64,000 bases of DNA from an uncultured Methylomirabilota bacterium. GTDB taxonomy: Bacteria; Methylomirabilota; Methylomirabilia; Methylomirabilales; 2-02-FULL-66-22. Below, in pieces: positions 2,005 through 50,408 of the stretch (the stretch's first letter is position 1; the number at the start of each line of letters is the position of its first letter). Location: the NCBI GenBank assembly GCA_963705305.1, contig OY970067.1:1472001-1536000 (forward strand), given 5' to 3'. The position numbers were made by a program, and so were the translations under genes. The notes beneath the pieces are model-generated. The model saw nothing but the letters and a program-made list of their open reading frames with translations. It did no database searches and had not been told where the DNA came from.

Positions 2005-3502
2005 ATGTGGCAGCGATGGAAGCAGTGGATGACGCGCGGAAACGGGCCGCTGGCGCTGGCCGTGGCCGGCCTGTTGGTGGGGAGCGTACTCGGGCTGGGG
2101 CTCGGCGGCGGATGGGGCGGACAGACGCAGGCGCGGGCCGCGATGAGCGCTGTCGTGGCCGCGCCCCCGGCCGGAGCGCCGGTCAGCTTCGCCGATCTGG
2201 CGGCAAGCCTGGAGCCGACGGTGGTCAACATCCGGGTGATCAAGGTCGAGAGAGTGTCCGGCTCCCCCTTCCCGGGAATCGAGGGGTTCGGCCAGGGGTC
2301 CCCGTTCGGCGAGATGTTCAAGCAGTTCTTCGGGGACATCCCCCAAGGCCCCCGCGAGTTCAAGCAGCAAGGGGCGGGCAGCGGCTTCATCATCAGGAAA
2401 GACGGGCTGATCATCACCAACAATCACGTGATCGAGGGGGCCAAGGAGATCACGGTCACGCTGGCGGACAAGGAAGAGTACCCGGCCAAGGTGATCGGCC
2501 GCGATCCCAAGACCGACATCGCGCTGCTGAAGATCCAGGCCGAGACCGAGCTGCCGGCGGCTCCCCTGGGCGACTCGGAGCACCTGCGGGTCGGGGACTG
2601 GGTCTTGGCCGTCGGCAATCCGTTCGGCCTCAACAACACGGTTACGGCCGGGATCGTGAGCGCCAAGGGGCGAGTCATCGGCGCAGGCCCCTACGATGAT
2701 TTCATCCAGACGGACGCCTCCATCAATCCCGGCAATTCCGGAGGTCCGCTCTTCAACCTGCAGGGAGAGGTGGTGGGGATCAACACGGCCATCATCCCCA
2801 ACGGACAAGGGATCGGCTTTGCCGTGCCGGTGAACCAGATGAAGAGCTTGCTGCCGCAGCTGGAGACAAGGGGGACTGTCACCCGCGGGTACTTGGGGGT
2901 GAGCGTCCAGGCCATCACGCCCGAGCTGGCCAAGAGCCTGCGCCTCAAGGAGGCCACGGGGGCGCTGGTTGCCGACGTGACGAAGGGGAGTCCGGCGGAG
3001 AAGGCTGGCATCAAGTCGGGGGACGTCATCACGGAGTTCAACGGGAAGCCGGTCACCGACATGCAGGCGCTGCCTGCCCTGGTGGCATCGACGGCCGTGG
3101 GCTCCAAGGTCCCCGTGACGATCGTGCGCGACGGCACGAAGCAGACGGTGGAGATTGCGGTGGGCCAGATGCCGGGCCAGTCCGGAGAACCGACCGCCGA
3201 GGCGCCGGCGGCAACGCGGAGCACGTGGGGCCTCACCGTGCGGGACGTGAGTCCGCAAGAAGCGCATAGCCTGGGCGTGACGCCCGGCGGCGGAGTCCTG
3301 GTGGCCGGCGTAGAGCCGGGGAGCGCGGCCGACCAGGCCGGCGTGCATCCCGGAGACGTCTATCCTGGAGGTCGCGCACCAGAAGGTGACGTTGGCGAAG
3401 GATTTGCAGACGCTGGCGGCCAAAGCGCCGGCCGGCGAGCCACAGCTCCTCCTGCTTCGCCGGGGCGGCGCCAGCCTGTTTGCCGCCCTGCAGCCGAAAT
3501 AG
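2005..3502 (+). CDS. DegP/DegQ (Do) serine endoprotease with two PDZ domains; +1 frameshift at 3361
   Basis: Catalytic motifs TNNHV, KTDIAL, INPGNSGGPL. Removing T3361 restores GDVILEVAHQKV...LLLLRRGGASLFAALQPK* (TAG 3500-3502). The 663-aa track ORF is an artefactual fusion. Confidence 0.9.
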
Positions 3503-3582: not shown

Positions 3583-3996
3583 ATGGAAAGCATCATCGAA
3601 TATCGAGACGATCTCCCGCCGAAGAACGAGTACCCCACTCACATTATCTCGCCCCCCTATCCGTCGTCCTGCTGCCTGGACCACATGGAGCAGATCGGCG
3701 ATCCGAGCATCGATGCGGACTGGCGCTTCTATTACAAGCGCTGCACGGTCTGCGGGTACAGCGTCCGCTGCTTCTACGCTCCCAGCTTGATGGCGGTTCT
3801 CAAGGCCACCAAGAAGATCCGGCGAGCGCTGGCCGAGATGAACCTGGGCACCGGCAAGCGGAAGCGCCGTACGCGGGCCGAGATCGATGCAGAGATCGCC
3901 GCTGCGGAGCGGACGCTGCCGGAGGAGGACGAGGTTGGTCTTCAGCCGGTGCGCGCCGCCGGCCGTCACCGCGGGGACCATTCGTCGGCCGCCTGA
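3583..3996 (+). CDS. Hypothetical Cys-rich protein (CC...CxxC...C) with a basic C-terminal patch
   Basis: GGGAG upstream of ATG 3583 and protein-like composition (MESIIEYRDD...SCCLDH...RCTVCGYSVRC). Confidence 0.65.
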   Translation: MESIIEYRDDLPPKNEYPTHIISPPYPSSCCLDHMEQIGDPSIDADWRFYYKRCTVCGYSVRCFYAPSLMAVLKATKKIRRALAEMNLGTGKRKRRTRAEIDAEIAAAERTLPEEDEVGLQPVRAAGRHRGDHSSAA

Positions 3997-4244
3997 GGGT
4001 GCACCGAGGGGACGCGAAAATGGCGTCCGCCGCGCCCGACCCCCCTTCCGGACCCCCTGACAGGGACCCCCACTCCTACGTCGCCCCTCTTGTGCGGGAG
4101 TCCGCAACAACGGACCCGAGCACGGGGGCCGCGCCCGCGCGTCTTCCGCCCATCGGGATCCCGTGATACGATGTCCCGGCTTGACGGCGGCGGCCGGGGG
4201 GTGCGCGCCGCCGTGCCCGAGTAACGAAGGGGCGGCCGGCTTCC

Positions 4245-6254
4245 ATGATCCAGCTCGAAGAGGTCAACAAGTCGTTCGGCGGCCAGATCGTGCTCCGCGA
4301 TCTGACCTGGCACATCACCCGTGGGCAGCGTGTCGGCCTGGTCGGTCCCAATGGGGCGGGCAAGACGACCCTGTGCCGCGTCCTGATCGGAGAGATCGAG
4401 GTCGACTCGGGCCAGGTGCGCCGTGCCAAGTCCACGACCATCGGCTATCTGCCGCAGGATATCACCAGCGCCGGGGACGGGACCGTCCTGGGGCACCTTC
4501 TGGCGGGGTTCGCCGAAGTGCAGCGGCTGGAGGCGGAGCTGGAGCTGCTGGCCGGCGAGATGGCGGAAGCAGAGGGCGGCGCCTCCGAGGAGATCGTGCA
4601 GCGGTACGGGAATCTCCAGCATCAATACGAAGCGCTCGGCGGGTACGGCCTGGAGGCACGGGCTAAGGCAATCCTGGGCGGCCTGGGATTCGGGCCCGAC
4701 AACGTCCACGCCCCTCTGGCGGGATTTTCGGGGGGCTGGCGCATGCGGGTGGCCCTGGGGCGGCTTCTGCTGCAGGGGCCGGACCTGCTTCTCCTGGATG
4801 AGCCCACCAATCACCTGGACCTGGAGTCCCTCCAGTGGCTCGAGGATTTTCTGGGGGCCTATGAGGGGACCGTCGTCATCATCTCCCACGACCGGTATTT
4901 CCTGAACCGCGTCGTGGACCGCATCGCGGAGCTGGAGCTGGGACGCTTCGCGCTATATGCGGGGGATTACGACGATTACCAGGCCCAGAAGCTCCAGCGG
5001 CAGGAGCAGCTCGAAGCCGCCCAGCGGAGCCAAGCCGAACAGATCGAGAAGATGGAGCGGTTCATCCGGAAGTTCCGCTACAAGGCCACCAAAGCCCGCC
5101 AGGTGCAGAGCCGGATCAAGCAGCTGGACCGGATGGAGCACGTGGAGATGATCCGCGCTCCCAAACGGATCCACTTCCGCATCCCGCAGCCGTCGCGTAG
5201 CGGGACGTTGGTCGCCGAGCTGCGCCGACTTCACAAGGCTTATGGCTCCGTGGTGGTCTATGCCGGGGTCGACTTCCGCCTGCTGCGGGGGGAGCGGGTG
5301 GCCTTGGTGGGACTCAACGGGGCCGGCAAGAGCACGCTGCTCAAGATCGTTGCCGGAGTCCTGCCCTTCGAGCGGGGAGAGCGGGTCCTGGGCCACAATG
5401 TGAGCGTTCACTATTACGCCCAGCATCAACTGGACGCCCTGACCCCCCGCAACACGGTGCTGGAGGAGCTGGCCGCGGTCGCCGATCTGGCAATGCAGTC
5501 CCGCCTGCGGACCATCCTGGGGGCCTTCCTGTTCACCGGCGACGACGTGGAGAAACCGGTGGCCGTCCTGTCGGGAGGCGAGAAGAGCCGGCTGGCCCTG
5601 GCTAAGATGCTGCTGCGCCCGACCAACCTCCTGTGCCTGGACGAGCCCACGAACCACTTGGACGTCACGGCGCGCGAGGTCCTGGAAGAGGCGCTGGATC
5701 AGTTCGAAGGCTCCATTCTCTTCATCTCGCACGACCGCTACTTCATCAACCGCATCGCCACCAAGGTCGTGGAGGTGCGGGAGGGCAGGCTGTTCGAGTT
5801 CGCGGGCGACTACGACTACTACCTGGAGAAGAAGGATGTCGGTCAGCCCTCAGCCCTCAGCCCTCAGCCCTCGGCCAGAACTGTGAAGACCGAGCCTGCC
5901 GCCCATCCCCAGCCCCCGGCCCTTGGCTCCGGGCCCGAGAGAGCCGCGGAGCCGAAGGTGAGTGCGAAGGAGATCCGACGGAGCGAGGCGGAGGCACGCC
6001 AGCGGAAAAGCCGGGAGGTCGGGCCTCTCAAAACCCGGCTGAGGGAGCTGGAGTCGGAGATCGCGGCCATGGAGGGGCGCATCCAGCACCTCACCGATCA
6101 GATGGCCAATCCCGACCTGTACAAGGACGGCGAGCGGGCTCGGGAGGTGGCACGGGAGCGGAAGGGGCTGGAGGAGCAGGCGAGAGCCCTCTACAGCAAG
6201 TGGGAAGAGCTGGCCCTCAGGCTGGAGAGCGCCGCGACCGACGGCGGGCGATGA
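4245..6254 (+). CDS. ABC-F family ATP-binding protein
   Basis: Two ABC domains (GPNGAGKT/FSGGW/LDEPTNHLD; GLNGAGKS/LSGGE/LDEPTNHLD), no TM segments, C-terminal coiled coil. Confidence 0.95.
   Translation: MIQLEEVNKSFGGQIVLRDLTWHITRGQRVGLVGPNGAGKTTLCRVLIGEIEVDSGQVRRAKSTTIGYLPQDITSAGDGTVLGHLLAGFAEVQRLEAELELLAGEMAEAEGGASEEIVQRYGNLQHQYEALGGYGLEARAKAILGGLGFGPDNVHAPLAGFSGGWRMRVALGRLLLQGPDLLLLDEPTNHLDLESLQWLEDFLGAYEGTVVIISHDRYFLNRVVDRIAELELGRFALYAGDYDDYQAQKLQRQEQLEAAQRSQAEQIEKMERFIRKFRYKATKARQVQSRIKQLDRMEHVEMIRAPKRIHFRIPQPSRSGTLVAELRRLHKAYGSVVVYAGVDFRLLRGERVALVGLNGAGKSTLLKIVAGVLPFERGERVLGHNVSVHYYAQHQLDALTPRNTVLEELAAVADLAMQSRLRTILGAFLFTGDDVEKPVAVLSGGEKSRLALAKMLLRPTNLLCLDEPTNHLDVTAREVLEEALDQFEGSILFISHDRYFINRIATKVVEVREGRLFEFAGDYDYYLEKKDVGQPSALSPQPSARTVKTEPAAHPQPPALGSGPERAAEPKVSAKEIRRSEAEARQRKSREVGPLKTRLRELESEIAAMEGRIQHLTDQMANPDLYKDGERAREVARERKGLEEQARALYSKWEELALRLESAATDGGR
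5843..5870 (+). repeat. Tandem heptamer (TCAGCCC)x4 inside the ABC-F linker
   Basis: Four perfect copies read directly from the sequence, followed by degenerate TCGGCC. Confidence 0.9.
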
Positions 6255-18115: not shown

Positions 18116-20179
18116 CTACCCGGGGATTTTCGTGAAGTCGGCAATTCGCGCAAACAGGTTGCGCACCGTTGTCAAGATGGCAAAGCGATTTTGCCTGAGG
18201 TTTTCGTCCGGGCCGACCACCAGGACCTCCTCGAAGAACATGTCCACCACGGGTTTCAGGGCCGCGATCTGCTGCAACGCGGCCAGGTACTCGTGGGCCG
18301 CCACCAGGCGGTCCACCTCGGCCTTCAGCTCCGTCGCCTGGGCAAAGAGCGCCCGCTCCGCGCCCTCCACCAGCCGCGTCGGATCCACGGGCCGGTCGAA
18401 TCCCTGCGGGATGATGCCGACCACCCGCCGGAAGGCGGCAGACAGCTCGCCGAAATCCGCCTCGCGCCGGATGATCGCCAGCGCCTCGGCGCGCTGGGCG
18501 GCGTCCCGCACGTCCCCGCAGCCCGCCGAGAGGACCGCCTCCACCACGTCTGCCGGCAGGCCGCGCTCCGTCAGGACGGCCTGGGTCCGGCCGCGCAGGA
18601 ATTCCAGCACCCCCTGCCGGATGATGAGCGGGTCCCGGGTCGGCGCCGGGAAACCGGCCTGGGCGTCGGCCACGGCCTCCTCCAGCGGGAAGCCAAAATC
18701 CCGGTGGAGGATCGTCTGCACCACCCCCAGGGCGGCGCGGCGCAGCGCATACGGATCCTCCGAGCCGCTGGGGATGAGGCCGATGGTGAAGCAGCCCACG
18801 ATGGAATCCAAACGGTCGGCCACCGCCAGCAGGGCGCCGGCGCTGGAGGCCGGCAGCCGATCCCCGGCGAAGCGGGGCAGGTAGTGCTCCTCGATGGCTT
18901 GGCAGACCTCGTCCGGCTCGCCGGAGAGGCGCGCGTACTCGCGCCCCATCACGCCCTGCAGCGTGGGGAACTCCTTGACCATGCCGGTGGCCAGGTCGCA
19001 CTTGCACAGCTCGGCCGCCCGGATCACGGTCGACTGCGCGACCGGATCCACCCGCTCGGCCAGCAGGCCTGCCAGGCGGCGGAGCCGCTGCACCTTGTCG
19101 AAGACCGTGCCCAGCTTTTCCTGGAAGATGATGTGCGCGAGCTCCGGCGTCCGCTCCGCCAGCGGGCGCTTGCGATCCTCCCGGTAGAAGAACTCGGCGT
19201 CGTTCAGCCGCGCGCGGAGCACGCGCTCGTTGCCCTGCCGGATCAGGTCCATGTCCCCCGCCCGGATGTTGGCGATGGTCACGAAGTGCGGGAGCAGCCG
19301 GCCGGCATCGTCCACCACCGGGAAGTAGCGCTGGTGCTTCTGCATGGGGGTGATGATGACGTCGCGCGGCAGCTCCAGATACTCCGATCTGAAGGAGCCG
19401 CAGACGGCGGTGGGGTCCTCCACCAGGTCCGCGACGATCTCCACCAGGGCGGCATCCAGCAGCGGCTTCCCCCCGAGGGCCGCCGCGGCCTCGGTGGCCA
19501 GCTTGCGCACCAGCTCGCGCCGCCGGCCCGGATCCACGATCACATGGCGCTCCTCGAGCTTCTCCACGTAGTCTCGGAAATTCCGAACCCGCGTCCCGCG
19601 CGGGGCCAGGAAGCGGTGGCCGTAGGTCTTCGCGTCCGACTGCACGCCGTCAAGGCTGAACGGGATGACGCGTCCGTCCAGGACGGCCAGCAGCCAGCGG
19701 ACCGGCCGGACGAAGCGAAACGTCCCCGCCCCCCAGCGCATGAACTTGGGGAAGGAAAGGGCGGCCACCAGCTTGGGCAGGAGGGTGGTCAGGATATCGG
19801 CCGTGAAAGCCCCGCGCTCTTCCAGGACCGCCACCACGTACTCCCCGCGGTCCAGCGCCCGGATCTGGAGCCGCTCGACCGGGACTCCTTGGGCGCGCCC
19901 GAACCCTTCGGCGGCCCGGGTGGGTCGCCCCTCCCCGTCAAAGGCGGCCGCCTTGGGGGGGCCCACCACCTCACGCCGCACGTCCGCTTGGCGCTCGGGC
20001 AGCCCGTCCACGACCAGCGTCAACCGCCGCGGCGTCCCGAGCGTCCGGAGGTCGGTCCAGGTCAGCCGCTGCTCCTGCAACAGGCGGCGCGCCATGGCCT
20101 TCAGGCCTTCCAGGGCGGCGGGCTGGTAGCCGGAGGGGATCTCCTCCGTGCCGATCTCGAACAACAGTTCCTTGCTCAT
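18116..20179 (-). CDS. glyS: Glycine-tRNA ligase beta subunit
   Basis: ELLFEIGTEEIP, TPRRL, FVRPVRW, EFPTLQGVMG, GSEDPYALRR. Confidence 0.97.
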   Translation of the reverse strand: MSKELLFEIGTEEIPSGYQPAALEGLKAMARRLLQEQRLTWTDLRTLGTPRRLTLVVDGLPERQADVRREVVGPPKAAAFDGEGRPTRAAEGFGRAQGVPVERLQIRALDRGEYVVAVLEERGAFTADILTTLLPKLVAALSFPKFMRWGAGTFRFVRPVRWLLAVLDGRVIPFSLDGVQSDAKTYGHRFLAPRGTRVRNFRDYVEKLEERHVIVDPGRRRELVRKLATEAAAALGGKPLLDAALVEIVADLVEDPTAVCGSFRSEYLELPRDVIITPMQKHQRYFPVVDDAGRLLPHFVTIANIRAGDMDLIRQGNERVLRARLNDAEFFYREDRKRPLAERTPELAHIIFQEKLGTVFDKVQRLRRLAGLLAERVDPVAQSTVIRAAELCKCDLATGMVKEFPTLQGVMGREYARLSGEPDEVCQAIEEHYLPRFAGDRLPASSAGALLAVADRLDSIVGCFTIGLIPSGSEDPYALRRAALGVVQTILHRDFGFPLEEAVADAQAGFPAPTRDPLIIRQGVLEFLRGRTQAVLTERGLPADVVEAVLSAGCGDVRDAAQRAEALAIIRREADFGELSAAFRRVVGIIPQGFDRPVDPTRLVEGAERALFAQATELKAEVDRLVAAHEYLAALQQIAALKPVVDMFFEEVLVVGPDENLRQNRFAILTTVRNLFARIADFTKIPG

Positions 20180-28689: not shown

Positions 28690-31161
<2,472 letters not shown>

Positions 31162-31280: not shown

Positions 31281-31310
31281 TTGACCCGATCCGGTCTAAT
31301 CCCGTATAGT
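31281..31310 (+). promoter_or_regulatory. Putative sigma70 promoter of the glutaredoxin-like selenoprotein gene
   Basis: TTGACC-18 nt-TATAGT. Confidence 0.6.
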
Positions 31311-31397
31311 GCAGGAGAGGTCGCTCGGAGCGGGCCCGGCAGCGCAACGGGCCTCCGCGTGGGGACCTGACAGGCAAGATAGGCAAGGAGGAAGAGG

Positions 31398-31634
31398 ATG
31401 GCGAAAGAGGTGATCGTGTACTCGCAGCCCGGGTGAGGCAGCTGTGAACAGGAGAAAGAGTTCCTTTCTCGCAAGGGCATCTCGTTTGTGAATAAAGACA
31501 TCCGCAAGGATCCAGAGGCGCTCCAGGAGTTGCTCAACCGCGGCTTCCGGGCCACCCCGGTCACCATCATCGATGGCGAAGCCGTGGTCGGTTTCGATCC
31601 GAAGCGACTGGGAGAGCTGCTCGGACTCCCGTAG
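31398..31634 (+). CDS. Glutaredoxin/NrdH-like selenoprotein (UxxC)
   Basis: AGGAGG RBS. MAKEVIVYSQPG-TGA(31434)-GSCEQEKEFL...GFRATPVTIIDGEAVVGFDPKRL*. TGA sits at the first Cys of CxxC. Hairpin at 31452-31470. Confidence 0.88.
31452..31470 (+). promoter_or_regulatory. Candidate bacterial SECIS hairpin
   Basis: GAGAAAG-AGTTC-CTTTCTC perfect 7-bp stem; the loop starts 22 nt after the TGA and has G in its first two positions. Confidence 0.7.
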
Positions 31635-31899
31635 ACGACGTGCGGCCTGCCATTCTGCTGTCGATGCTCCTCCGGCAGGGCCCCGATTGGGCACGGCTCT
31701 GGGGCCCGCGGAGGTGCATCCCGCCGCGCCGAATCACGCAGAAACGCTTCCCATCTCCATTCTTCCATTGCCTCGGAGCGGATGGCTGTGCTATTGGTGA
31801 ACCGGCGCGCCGGGTCCGGGAGAGTCCCTGCGCGCTCGCACCGCCCGCGGGGCCTGCGGGTTTCGGGCCTGGGTCGTGTCTCCTCCTCCCTCCGAGGCT

Positions 31900-32922
31900 A
31901 TGCGAACGACGCAATTGTGGCGGGGTTGGACCGCAGCGCTGGTGATCGGCTGGCTGGCAGTGGGGGCGTTGGCCGCCCTGCCGGCCTCGGCCGGGCAGGC
32001 GGCATCCGGATCGGGGCGGGCCGGCGATCACGCGCCGCCGCTCTCCGATCGAGAGGCCATTCAGGCCGAGCTGGGCCGGCCGATGAGCGAGCTGCGGTCG
32101 TGGTCCACTCAGGCGTTGCAGGCGTACATCCAGCGGCTGGCGCACCTCTCCGCCTCCCTGGAGGCGACGACGGATGTTCCGCCGGCGGAGCACCAGAGCC
32201 TGACCGAGCAGCTGCTGGCCCGCACGGCCCAGGTGGCCCTCCTCGTCCGCCAGCGCTCGGGGGAGGTCCCGCCGGCCGAGCGGGCGGCCCGTCCGTCCGC
32301 AGTCGGCACCGCCCAGGCGGTGCTGGGAAAGCTGGCGGAGGCGCTGCAGGACAACTCGCTCCTGTTCATTGCCCTGTTGGGGGGGACGCTGGTCGTCTTC
32401 GCGATCGGAAATCTGGCGGGCTATCGCCGTGGGGCCCGTCAGGCCTCGTACTATGGGGAGGGCGACCCGCGGATCCGGTTCCTGGTCCGCCCCTCCGCCA
32501 CGCCGGAGCAGCCCGGGGAATCGATCCGAGTCACCCTGCCGCAGATACGCGACCGGCTGGCCAGCGGGCGCATGGTCATGCTCCAGCTCGGCTACGAGGT
32601 TGCGCCCGCACACCGCCCGCGCTTCCTGGCGCTGGTGGACGATGTCGCGGGAGTTCTGAGCGAGATCGAGGGGCTGACCTACACGGTGTGGGAGGACCCG
32701 CGGCATCCCAACCGGTTCTACGAGCTGCTGGTCTGTCACCGTGTGGCGGCTCTCGACCGCCTCACCGCGACCGAGGCGCGTCTCGCCCACCTGGCTCAGG
32801 CGGTAGAGGCCTGCCGGGTTTCCGGCGGGCCGGTGCTGCGGCGGGCCTGGCTGGCGGTGCTGCCCCAGTCCGGAAAGACCGCCGCATCTCCCGCCGCCCC
32901 GGACGCCTCGCAGCTGCGCTGA
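31900..32922 (+). CDS. Hypothetical membrane protein with a C-terminal dimeric alpha/beta-barrel-like domain
   Basis: Signal-like N-terminus, one internal TM, C-terminal YEVAP...FL...YTVWEDPRHPNRFYE pattern. Confidence 0.6.
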   Translation: MRTTQLWRGWTAALVIGWLAVGALAALPASAGQAASGSGRAGDHAPPLSDREAIQAELGRPMSELRSWSTQALQAYIQRLAHLSASLEATTDVPPAEHQSLTEQLLARTAQVALLVRQRSGEVPPAERAARPSAVGTAQAVLGKLAEALQDNSLLFIALLGGTLVVFAIGNLAGYRRGARQASYYGEGDPRIRFLVRPSATPEQPGESIRVTLPQIRDRLASGRMVMLQLGYEVAPAHRPRFLALVDDVAGVLSEIEGLTYTVWEDPRHPNRFYELLVCHRVAALDRLTATEARLAHLAQAVEACRVSGGPVLRRAWLAVLPQSGKTAASPAAPDASQLR

Positions 32923-33851: not shown

Positions 33852-33929
33852 TGGCGTGCCCGACGCGATTTGAACGCGTGACCTTCGGCTCCGCAGGCCG
33901 ACGCTCTATCCAAGCTGAGCTACGGGCAC
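33852..33929 (-). tRNA. tRNA-Arg(GCG), CCA encoded
   Basis: Acceptor stem GTGCCCG/CGGGCAC, D-arm GCTC..GAGC, anticodon arm TCGGC-CTGCGGA-GCCGA, T-loop TTCAAAT, 3' GCCA. Confidence 0.95.
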
Positions 33930-35532: not shown

Positions 35533-36006
35533 ATGTCCGGCCAGGTTGCCTACACATCGCACGTGCGGATCGAGCGGGTGAAGGGCCCGCTGCGGCGGGC
35601 CTATCTGCCGGTGGAGACACAGCCGACCCTGTTCGGCGTGCACTCCGAGGTGGCGCAGCATTACGGCGTGGACCCCGCCGTCCACGAGCCCCACGCCACC
35701 ACCCTGGACTATATCGTCGCGGCCGCCGCCGGGTGACTCACGGGAACCTTCGGGGGCGCGCTGGAGGCGCGCGGGATTCCGGCGGGGGAAGGCCGGCTGG
35801 TCTCGGAGGCCACCGGCGAGATCGAGGCAGACGGGCGGGTGCTGGTGATCCGCCGCATTCACGTGCGCTATCGGCTGAAGCTGGAGCCGGAGAAGCGCGA
35901 GGCGGCGGAGCGGGTGCTTCGGATCCACGCCGATCACTGCCCGGTCGCCCGCAGCATCGGCGGCTGCATCGCCATCTCGACCTCGCTCGAGATGCAGGAT
36001 GCGTGA
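35533..36006 (+). CDS. OsmC/Ohr-like selenoprotein
   Basis: AGGAGG RBS. ...TLDYIVAAAAG-TGA(35734)-LTGTFGGALEARGI...HADHCPVARSI*. The frame stays open for 89 more codons and TGA aligns with the OsmC first catalytic Cys. Confidence 0.88.
35743..35780 (+). promoter_or_regulatory. Candidate bacterial SECIS hairpin
   Basis: Apical stem GCGCGC-TGGAG-GCGCGC (35756-35772), lower stem GGAA/TTCC; the loop starts 25 nt after the TGA. Confidence 0.6.
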
Positions 36007-49202: not shown

Positions 49203-50094
49203 CTACGGCTTCGCGCTCCAAGTGACGAAGGTATCCATCGACTTGATCGCCGCCCGGATGTCCGTGTAGACGGGCAAGCCGTGCCCTTCCAGGATGGGCT
49301 TGCTGCCCCGTCGCGCCAGGTCGAAGAACTGCCGCCCCTCGCCGGGATCCAGCCCTTCGATGTACAGGGCGATTACATCGCTTCCGGCATCCGCCTCGAA
49401 ATAGGCCAGGCGATCGGCGATCTTGACGTCATACTTGTTGCCGAAGCTGACGATGGTCCGGAACAGCCGCGCGTTGTGCAGCTTGTCGAGGGCGGTCACC
49501 GCGAACGCGCCGCTCTGGGTGAGCAGCACCGTGTTGCTGTGGCCCGAGGATTTCACCTCCAGCCGCTTCTCTTCGATGAACAGGGTGTTTAGGCCCGGCC
49601 GGTCCGCCGTGGGCGCCGTAAACACGCCCATGCAATTCGGGCCGATCACGCGGACGCCCGGCGGCAGCACATCCGCCAGCTCCCGGGCAAACTCCGGACA
49701 GGCGATGTTGGCCGGCATTCCCGAGTTCAGGAAGCCGCGAAGGTCCGGCCTCTGGGCCGGCGTTTAATAGCTCGACACCTCCTCCTGCATCCGTGCCATC
49801 ACGAATTGCACGAAGAGCGGGTCGTCCTGCTCGATCACCTTGACGCCGCCGACCCGCTGCTTGTGGGCGATTTGTGGCGAGACGACCTTGACTACGAGCT
49901 TCCGGCCGAGAGGGGCCAGGCGTGCGGCATTCACCTCGCGCGGGTCGTTGACAAAGACCCACCGGGGAACCTGAAGCCCCAGCTCCGCGAGCACCTGATA
50001 CACCTCGAACTCATACAGCGCCCGCCGCCCGTCCGCAGCCGCAGTCCTCAAGATCTCGTTGATTCGGCTCCAGGCCGTCGGCGGAGATGGGCAC
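49203..50094 (-). pseudogene. Decayed ADP-forming acetate/acyl-CoA ligase (ATP-grasp and CoA-binding fragments)
   Basis: VVKVVSPQIAHK..VGGV fragment ends at TAA 49764; then RVIGPNCMG, TQSGA, SFGN, ALYIEG fragments. Far shorter than a complete gene. Confidence 0.75.
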
Positions 50095-50408
50095 GGTCGC
50101 CTCCTGGGCACGAGGGCGGACGGCAAGCGGTCCGCACGGAGATTCCCCGGTGTGGGTTCTCCGCGGCTCGGAACAGATGCCGGAGGCCCCGGTCCTTGTT
50201 GCTTGGGCGGCGTCCGGCGATCTCGGAGAGCATGGCGCAATGCGTCGGATCGTGTCAAGGGGAGAGCCGCCCGCGGGCGGTTCGATCGCAAGCGGGGGGC
50301 CTGCGGCGGATGCACAGCGGGGTTGCGAGCCGGGGAGCGGTCAGCTAGACTACCGCCGGGGCGAGTCCCCCAGGCGCCGCCCGGATCGGGCGAGGAGGGA
50401 GCTGAGGC

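Follow-up and report, generated by a model that had tools for sequence, protein, structure and literature searches.

Does an in-frame TGA end the reading frame of a small glutaredoxin-like gene, or does it encode the catalytic residue of a complete protein? The question is raised by positions 31398..31634 (+ strand) of a 64,000-nucleotide stretch of DNA (the window) from an uncultured Methylomirabilota bacterium (contig OY970067.1 of assembly GCA_963705305.1, positions 1,472,001 to 1,536,000), for which an earlier note, made from the letters alone, had proposed an unannotated selenoprotein. The locus is a real small redox-protein gene, and it is missed by gene finders because a UGA “stop” stands at the codon of the catalytic residue. 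It is very probable that the UGA at codon 13 is decoded as selenocysteine (Sec, U in one-letter code). This would give a selenol-thiol redoxin of the type of cGrx1, the glutaredoxin of Clostridium oremlandii, with the active site Sec13-Gly-Ser-Cys16. The Sec decoding proposed in the earlier note is supported by the recurrence of the TGA in every related locus examined, by a conserved hairpin downstream of it and by the counterpart of the residue in cGrx1, Sec13.

The reading frame starts at an ATG (31398-31400) and ends at a TAG stop codon (31632-31634), which is included in the coordinates of the gene. It holds 78 sense codons, the TGA counted, and the 78-residue product is a redoxin resembling cGrx1, YruB and NrdH, as indicated by the Pfam score, a structural model and Foldseek comparisons. 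The sole in-frame TGA (31434..31436) stands in the context YSQPG-U-GSC and is read as the Sec nucleophile of U-G-S-C on the grounds of family conservation and of alignment with cysteine. The TGT at 31443..31445 encodes Cys16, the resolving cysteine of the UxxC motif, in a column that is invariant in a 58-sequence alignment and that corresponds to C16 of cGrx1. The GC content by codon position around the gene is coding-like and fits this frame on the + strand. A Shine–Dalgarno sequence, AAGGAGG (31385..31391), is located 6 nt ahead of the ATG. Further upstream, the sequence TTGACC-18 nt-TATAGT (31281..31310, + strand) matches 10 of the 12 consensus positions of a sigma-70-like promoter, with one site found against 0.1 expected from 50 shuffles; on this consensus match it is a candidate promoter. 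The earlier note had read the 78-codon glutaredoxin/NrdH-fold frame and the ribosome binding site correctly, and its promoter is borne out as a promoter-like sequence.

As the same note had remarked, the gene is absent from the standard open reading frame (ORF) listing, which has at this locus only a 48-amino acid fragment starting at a GTG (31488-31634). A similar truncation is found in public data. A word-indexed protein search returned 53 relatives, of which 49 are pieces of 43-59 amino acids covering only the part after the TGA. The full-length public predictions include two with Trp at position 13 (P0002 and P0003, on contigs of 1.2-1.7 kb) and one with Cys (P0004). Gene calling systematically shortens this Sec-glutaredoxin family, with the result that catalogues of uncultured lineages, among them Methylomirabilota, Binatia and Armatimonadota, lack the active-site half. 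The term “unannotated” therefore holds as far as gene callers are concerned, which deliver fragments; it does not hold for the family itself, which is not new.

To follow the TGA codon among relatives, genome contigs were scanned with the most conserved peptide of the family, DGEAVVGF; 98 relatives were confirmed and 80 loci examined. Codon 13 is TGA in 80 of the 80 loci, always within QPG-U-xx-C, and in 81 of 81 genes when the window is counted. According to their record titles, the loci span at least eight phyla, with labels that include Methylomirabilota, Rokuibacteriota, Binatia, Thermodesulfobacteriota/Deltaproteobacteria, Armatimonadota, Terriglobia/Acidobacteriia, Vicinamibacterales, Planctomycetota, Zixiibacteriota and Eisenbacteria. 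A start codon is present at aligned position 1 in 76 of the 81 genes, and at least two of the remaining five (L043 and L044) have an ATG one codon upstream of it. In 78 of the 81, a Shine–Dalgarno-like core precedes aligned position 1 by 4-18 nt. The diversity at the three codon positions is 0.30/0.15/0.55 in the 11 codons before the TGA and 0.28/0.22/0.52 in the 64 codons after it. This equal pattern on both sides indicates that translation covers the codons ahead of the TGA as well, in one frame with those that follow.

These data bear directly on two other explanations. Were the TGA a true stop, the locus would hold a decayed glutaredoxin gene, or would encode a 12-residue peptide or a 48-residue C-terminal fragment from the GTG at 31488, and exactly such fragments appear in the standard ORF listing and in public gene calls. 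However, a nonsense codon would not persist in 81 of 81 genes over many phyla with purifying selection on both sides of it, codons 1-76 are free of any other stop in all 81 genes, and the 48-amino acid fragment would be without the active site, strand 1 and helix 1. A true stop is accordingly held to be extremely unlikely. The second explanation is a sequencing or assembly error, in which the window TGA stands for TGC or TGT. A single-base difference would suffice for this, and the close homologue prediction P0004 has Cys at the position. Yet the TGA recurs in 80 independent assemblies, and the window itself carries the accompanying hairpin and rare-codon signature described below, so that an error of this kind is scarcely credible.

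The position of the TGA coincides with the redox nucleophile of the wider family. A search of cluster-representative proteins gave 3539 matches at E <= 0.001, and the motif was read in the best 150 of them. The aligned motif is CxxC in 123, CxxS in five and WxxC in three, with Q, R and S in one each, while 16 are without the N-terminal part. Cys therefore stands opposite codon 13 in 128 of these 150 representatives, as it does in the homologues of known structure in the PDB. Codon 13 also aligns with the Cys that replaces the native Sec13 in the cGrx1 structure. The placement of the TGA at the nucleophilic Cys, and the agreement with Cys-containing homologues by which the earlier note had suggested it be checked, are both confirmed by this alignment.

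For the profile search, Cys was substituted for Sec in the protein sequence. Pfam Glutaredoxin (PF00462) matches at 48.2 bits (cut-off 22.9), with residues 5-63 spanning positions 1-60 of the 60-position profile. The AlphaFold2 model, built with the 58-sequence alignment, has a predicted local distance difference test score (pLDDT) of 92.6 and a beta-alpha-beta-alpha-beta-beta-alpha thioredoxin fold (strands 5-9, 31-34, 55-58 and 61-64; helices 14-25, 39-47 and 68-75). In this model, residue 13 is immediately ahead of the helix formed by residues 14-25, so that the U/CxxC motif stands at the N-terminal end of helix 1. Pro54 (CCG, 31557..31559) occupies the cis-proline-loop position of the thioredoxin fold within the motif T-P-V, just ahead of the strand at residues 55-58. 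It is conserved in at least 90% of the alignment and probably takes the cis conformation.

Assignment to a named subfamily was considered in four cases and rejected in each. The best NCBIfam model is YruB (TIGR02196), which at 69.8 bits remains under its curated cut-off of 88.55. The NrdH models are also under their cut-offs (TIGR02194, 62.0 against 85.75; NF007657, 33.7 against 131), and no nrd genes were found among the window or neighbour ORFs scanned. The glutaredoxin-like UXX-star family (NF041212) scores 49.5 against a cut-off of 66 and is expected to have its Sec three residues from the C-terminus, which is not the case here (residue 13 of 78). The UGSC-containing family (NF041046) is not among the 17 NCBIfam families matched at E <= 0.01, and relatives of the window gene bear other residues between U and C. 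As these relatives have UGAC, UGPC, UPPC, ULFC or UMFC, the literal U-G-S-C motif is a coincidence.

Decoding of UGA as Sec in bacteria would further call for a selenocysteine insertion sequence (SECIS) in the RNA, and the coding region contains a hairpin resembling a bacterial SECIS (bSECIS) at 31452..31470 (+ strand), recognized by folding and by conservation. It is composed of the arm GAGAAAG (31452-31458), the loop AGUUC (31459-31463) and the arm CUUUCUC (31464-31470). The perfect 7-bp hairpin is as the earlier note had described it; the distance of 22 nt given there is that from the last UGA base to the loop, with the stem starting after 15 nt. The published bSECIS model, as set out in the Figure 2 legend of PMC13188914, specifies a loop of 3-9 nt, a stem of 4-16 bp, a G in the first two loop positions, a distance of 16-37 nt from the UGA to the loop and a minimum free energy of <= -7.5 kcal/mol. 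With a 5-nt loop, a 7-bp stem, a distance of 22 nt and an energy of -8.2 kcal/mol for the isolated hairpin, the element lies within these constraints, and its second loop position is a G, followed by a U. The bSECIS search that the earlier note had proposed has a positive outcome on this model, and also with regard to relatives. An uninterrupted helix of 7-8 bp occupies this site in each of the 68 distinct sequences and comes in 14 variants, among them GAGAAAG/CUUUCUC, GAGGUAG/CUAUCUC, GGUGAAGG/CCUUCACC and CGCAAGA/UCUUGCG. The loop residues G27 and U28 are invariant across all 68. The helix occurs in two registers one column apart: position i pairs with 56-i in 47 sequences, the window included, and with 55-i in 21 sequences (the ULFC-type clade).

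The choice of codons in this region points in the same direction. Glu21 is GAG in 81 of 81 genes; for comparison, Glu61 is GAG in 49 and GAA in 32. Leu23 is CTT in 74 genes and CTA in seven, and never CTG or CTC, the dominant codons at other Leu positions. The CTA codon occurs exactly where codon 20 is GTA or GTG (Val) instead of AAA or AAG (Lys20), a switch that restores a U-A pair opposite the substitution. Codons 19-24 form the six-codon stretch with the lowest third-position diversity in the gene (0.264 against 0.551 elsewhere). The window stem also makes use of codons that are rare in the window, namely AAA, CTT and TCT (0.119, 0.052 and 0.031 of their synonymous sets). A first statistic, which counted a 7-bp helix anywhere and allowed G-U pairs, was uninformative, as 44% of recodings pass it, and was replaced by a site-specific test. 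In this test, with the peptide and the window codon usage fixed, a helix of at least 7 bp arose in 8 of 5000 recodings (0.16%). The hairpin is conserved and under selection at the RNA level. The family illustrates cleanly how the coding sequence of a conserved helical peptide, E/V-K-E-F-L-S, can also carry a SECIS, through rare codons that have become fixed.

A number of observations weigh against Sec decoding through such an element. The stability of the hairpin is ordinary (z -0.12 for 60 nt and -1.70 for the hairpin alone, with 14 of 200 shuffles folding as well), and GC-rich recodings fold overall at least as well as the native sequence. RNAalifold found no consensus structure in the 68-sequence alignment, and a single register pairs only 85.7% of cells. 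Three pairs have changes on both sides, where shuffles give 2.3 (a value as high was reached in 189 of 500), and a -1 shift of the 3′ partner yields a similar covariation score (0.190 against 0.170). The weak results from RNAalifold, the single register and covariation arise because two helix registers coexist, and the helix was for this reason traced sequence by sequence. Even with this explanation, the formal covariation test is weak. The hairpin overlaps the conserved peptide, so that its conservation is partly protein-driven. The gene region has no Rfam match at the gathering score, and three chance matches to eukaryotic families at E <= 10. At the protein level, no NCBIfam model among the 17 families reaches its curated cut-off. 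The pattern DGEAVVGF picks one subfamily, with 18 of the 98 confirmed relatives outside the 80 loci. Finally, neither the 64 kb of the window nor the flanking DNA of 55 loci yielded selA, selB, selD or a tRNA-Sec.

The lack of Sec machinery in the window is also a point in favor of a further explanation, in which near-cognate or suppressor decoding, independent of the Sec pathway, would place an ordinary amino acid (Cys, Trp or Gly) at the UGA, with the hairpin as a generic read-through stimulator. Trp is indeed called at this position in the metagenome predictions P0002 and P0003 and in three of the best 150 representatives. However, these calls, which are predictions at the protein level only, come from contigs of 1.2-1.7 kb and fit the choice by the caller of a code in which TGA is Trp. 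TGA is the stop codon of 10 of the 26 Pfam-supported genes in the window, which excludes genome-wide reassignment. The position is that of the redox nucleophile, and the protein would be inactive with Trp or Gly there; the closest characterized homologue has Sec at the same residue. Moreover, the G-U of the loop and the spacing agree with the SelB-type bSECIS model. Read-through as a standard amino acid is thus regarded as very unlikely.

On the favored reading, decoding as Sec, the ribosome would meet the UGA at codon 13, and SelB carrying Sec-tRNA(Sec) would be recruited by the hairpin, which lies 15-36 nt further downstream and has G-U in its loop. Selenocysteine would then be inserted instead of termination, and the full protein would be made. 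By homology with cGrx1, Sec13 would present its selenolate at the N-terminal end of helix 1, from where it may attack a disulfide or sulfenic acid of a client protein. Cys16 would resolve the mixed selenenyl-sulfide to form an intramolecular Se-S bond. It can be postulated from the same homology that glutathione, or a flavoenzyme of the thioredoxin reductase type, reduces this bond again.

The window was also screened for other genes interrupted by TGA. A first screen yielded nothing but neighboring genes that share a frame. A looser screen for TGA codons with coding-like flanks gave 22 candidates, of which 18 were scanned with Pfam and four long gene-joining spans were left out. In just two of the 18 does a domain extend across the TGA, the glutaredoxin and an OsmC-like frame. 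The latter (35533-36006, + strand; Pfam OsmC 46.6 bits against 27.5) has its TGA at 35734-35736 in the context AAAG-U-LTGTF, and is followed by a GC-rich 7-bp hairpin (35756-35772) with the loop GGA starting 26 nt after the UGA. The hairpin is not significant (z -0.73). Among the best 120 OsmC homologue predictions, the site is W in 101, C in 11 and another residue in eight. Almost all W forms are on contigs under 3 kb and may be TGA codons called as Trp; alternatively, Trp is genuine in the family and the window has a TGG-to-TGA mutation. The candidate has no match among PDB sequences and no homologue in the 80 Sec-glutaredoxin loci. OsmC-like proteins (PF02566) are among the listed selenoprotein families. 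Located about 4 kb downstream of the glutaredoxin, the frame is a probable second selenoprotein gene, and if real it would be an independent sign of Sec use by the organism. Taken together, the glutaredoxin and the OsmC-like candidate suggest that the organism uses selenocysteine. A further frame, 49203-50180 (- strand), is not a selenoprotein gene, as its break is a stop other than TGA. It contains pieces resembling ADP-forming acetyl-CoA synthetase (the start of ATP-grasp_5 and part of Succ_CoA_lig) and is likely a gene remnant.

The genes around the Sec-glutaredoxin could offer an indication of its partners. Upstream of it in the window is a gene for a proton-pumping pyrophosphatase (28690-31161). 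Directly downstream is a gene for a conserved hypothetical membrane protein of about 350 amino acids (31876-32922, + strand), with a hydrophobic N-terminus and one central hydrophobic segment, for which no Pfam family and no usable Atlas match were found. Homologues of this protein also come directly after the glutaredoxin gene in loci L011 (3179-4267, 41% identity) and L017 (941-2032, 48%). About 2.2 kb downstream of the gene there is a tRNA-Arg(gcg) on the - strand (33855-33929), which comes next, at about the same distance, in L017 as well (3346-3423, - strand). As L017 is a locus from a Methylomirabilota metagenome-assembled genome (MAG), this indicates local synteny. The best match to the window among the loci, L001, is a Methylomirabilota-type record, and the closest relatives and synteny partners of the window gene are likewise Methylomirabilota records, which by itself points to this lineage as the probable source of the window. 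Another tRNA prediction, an 88-nt ARAGORN “tRNA-Trp(cca)” at 18791-18878 (- strand), is a false positive that lies inside the glycyl-tRNA synthetase beta gene and is not seen by Rfam.

Across the family, unfiltered clustering of neighbors was dominated by shadow ORFs of GC-rich DNA, and a codon-position filter was therefore applied. This retained 91 of 241 ORFs and 51 of 78 loci, redundant Binatia loci having been dropped. A CoA_binding_2 gene (PF13380) is found directly downstream, on the same strand and within tens of bases, in 14 of the 51 loci (L053, L055, L059, L063, L064, L065, L067, L069, L071, L072, L074, L075, L077 and L079). These belong to the ULFC-type clade of Armatimonadota-labelled and unclassified records. 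Judged by gene order, the Sec-glutaredoxin and CoA_binding_2 form a conserved pair. Other neighbors relate to mercury, metals and redox chemistry, and several of the loci concerned are from Methylomirabilota and Acidobacteriota. MerB adjoins the gene in L005 (ArsR and MerB, 1751-2619) and in L014 (2067-2834, with a disulfide reductase at 3726-4919); MerT-HMA is found in L076 (1895-2497), MerR in L070 (1237-1695) and CsoR-like repressors in L069, L071 and L076. Pyridine-nucleotide disulfide reductases are present in L008, L014, L019 and L051, with the ORF at 3244-4455 of L019 being a fusion of a glutaredoxin domain and a thioredoxin reductase-like part beside the gene. AhpC/TSA proteins occur in L064, L065, L066 and L068. 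Some of the metal- and mercury-related neighbor ORFs start mid-domain, and in-frame TGA codons might be the cause. In Methylomirabilota-type loci there are ORFs of the PCYCGC family (PF13798; L001 2079-2435, L002 1106-1474 and L003 2441-2797), each with a mid-profile match only. PF13798 is listed as a selenoprotein family in PMC13188914, and these ORFs may likewise be selenoprotein genes cut short by gene calling.

These varied neighbors are best accounted for by a general redoxin whose partners differ between lineages. It has also been considered that the QPG-U-xx-C redoxins are a separate, Sec-fixed branch of Grx1/YruB that serves lineage-specific clients rather than MsrA. This more specific proposal is doubtful, and the window itself shows neither CoA_binding_2 nor a mercury or metal gene context. 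If true, it would imply a redoxin for CoA-thiol chemistry or for soft-metal handover of the Hg(II) type, and would give selenoprotein glutaredoxins a new role.

The biology of the window gene is not new, given that selenoprotein glutaredoxins are documented and that one has been characterized biochemically and structurally. The Sec glutaredoxin (PF00462, UxxC) is listed in PMC13188914 among experimentally supported prokaryotic selenoproteins, and glutaredoxin and glutaredoxin-like UxxC selenoprotein families are among those counted in ocean metagenomes (PMC2398784). A literature search that excluded supplements and did not use the branch name found no specific description of the QPG-U-xx-C branch, its spread over phyla or its codon-level SECIS signature. 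With regard to the lineage, the review PMC13188914 cites Deng et al. 2026 for a Methylomirabilota MAG with 63 predicted selenoprotein genes. The Sec-glutaredoxin family could act as an indicator that Sec is used in the phyla in which it is found.

Among the known systems, the UGSC-containing family of ocean metagenome surveys (NF041046) shares with the window gene the UxxC motif and a predicted thioredoxin-like fold, without a match between the gene and the family model. The NrdH-redoxins (TIGR02194; PDB 1H75, 4FIW and 1R7H) are alike in fold and size (template modelling (TM) score 0.84; E-values 6.5e-10 to 6e-06). They differ in their use of Cys, and the 52 window ORFs scanned include no ribonucleotide reductase gene. 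YruB proteins (TIGR02196) and BC3987 of Bacillus cereus (PDB 3ZIJ/3ZIT) are small CxxC redoxins of equal size, and BC3987 is the top Foldseek match (TM 0.88/0.92, 38% identity). In contrast to the window gene, which remains below the YruB cut-off, these proteins have Cys and not Sec.

The closest PDB chain is 7c10, cGrx1 of C. oremlandii (Clostridium sp. OhILAs; PDB 7C10/7C12), with an E-value of 1.3e-17 over residues 1-77 and 39 of 77 residues identical by hand count on the HMMER midline. In the Foldseek comparison of the model with 7c10_A, the TM scores are 0.93/0.96 and the root-mean-square deviation is 0.8 Å. cGrx1 and its client MsrA are described as native selenoproteins in which Cys was put in place of the catalytic Sec for structure determination (PMC7642778). 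The name of a cGrx1 mutant, U13C/C16S (PMC4479559), places its Sec and its resolving Cys at residues 13 and 16, as in the window gene. The two proteins share their length class (77-84 amino acids), fold and UxxC motif, with an identity of about 49-51%, an identical N-terminus (MAKEVIVY), Sec13 and Cys16 in both, and the K-E-F-L-S stretch after the active site. As a point of difference, no MsrA gene is near the window gene, nor was one found among the 52 window ORFs scanned or the 91 neighbor ORFs of the 51 loci. The active site is U-G-S-C in the window gene and U-P-H-C in cGrx1, and the QPG before the Sec is conserved in the window family. The hosts also differ: that of cGrx1 is a clostridium, whereas the window family is found in GC-rich uncultured lineages of soil and groundwater.

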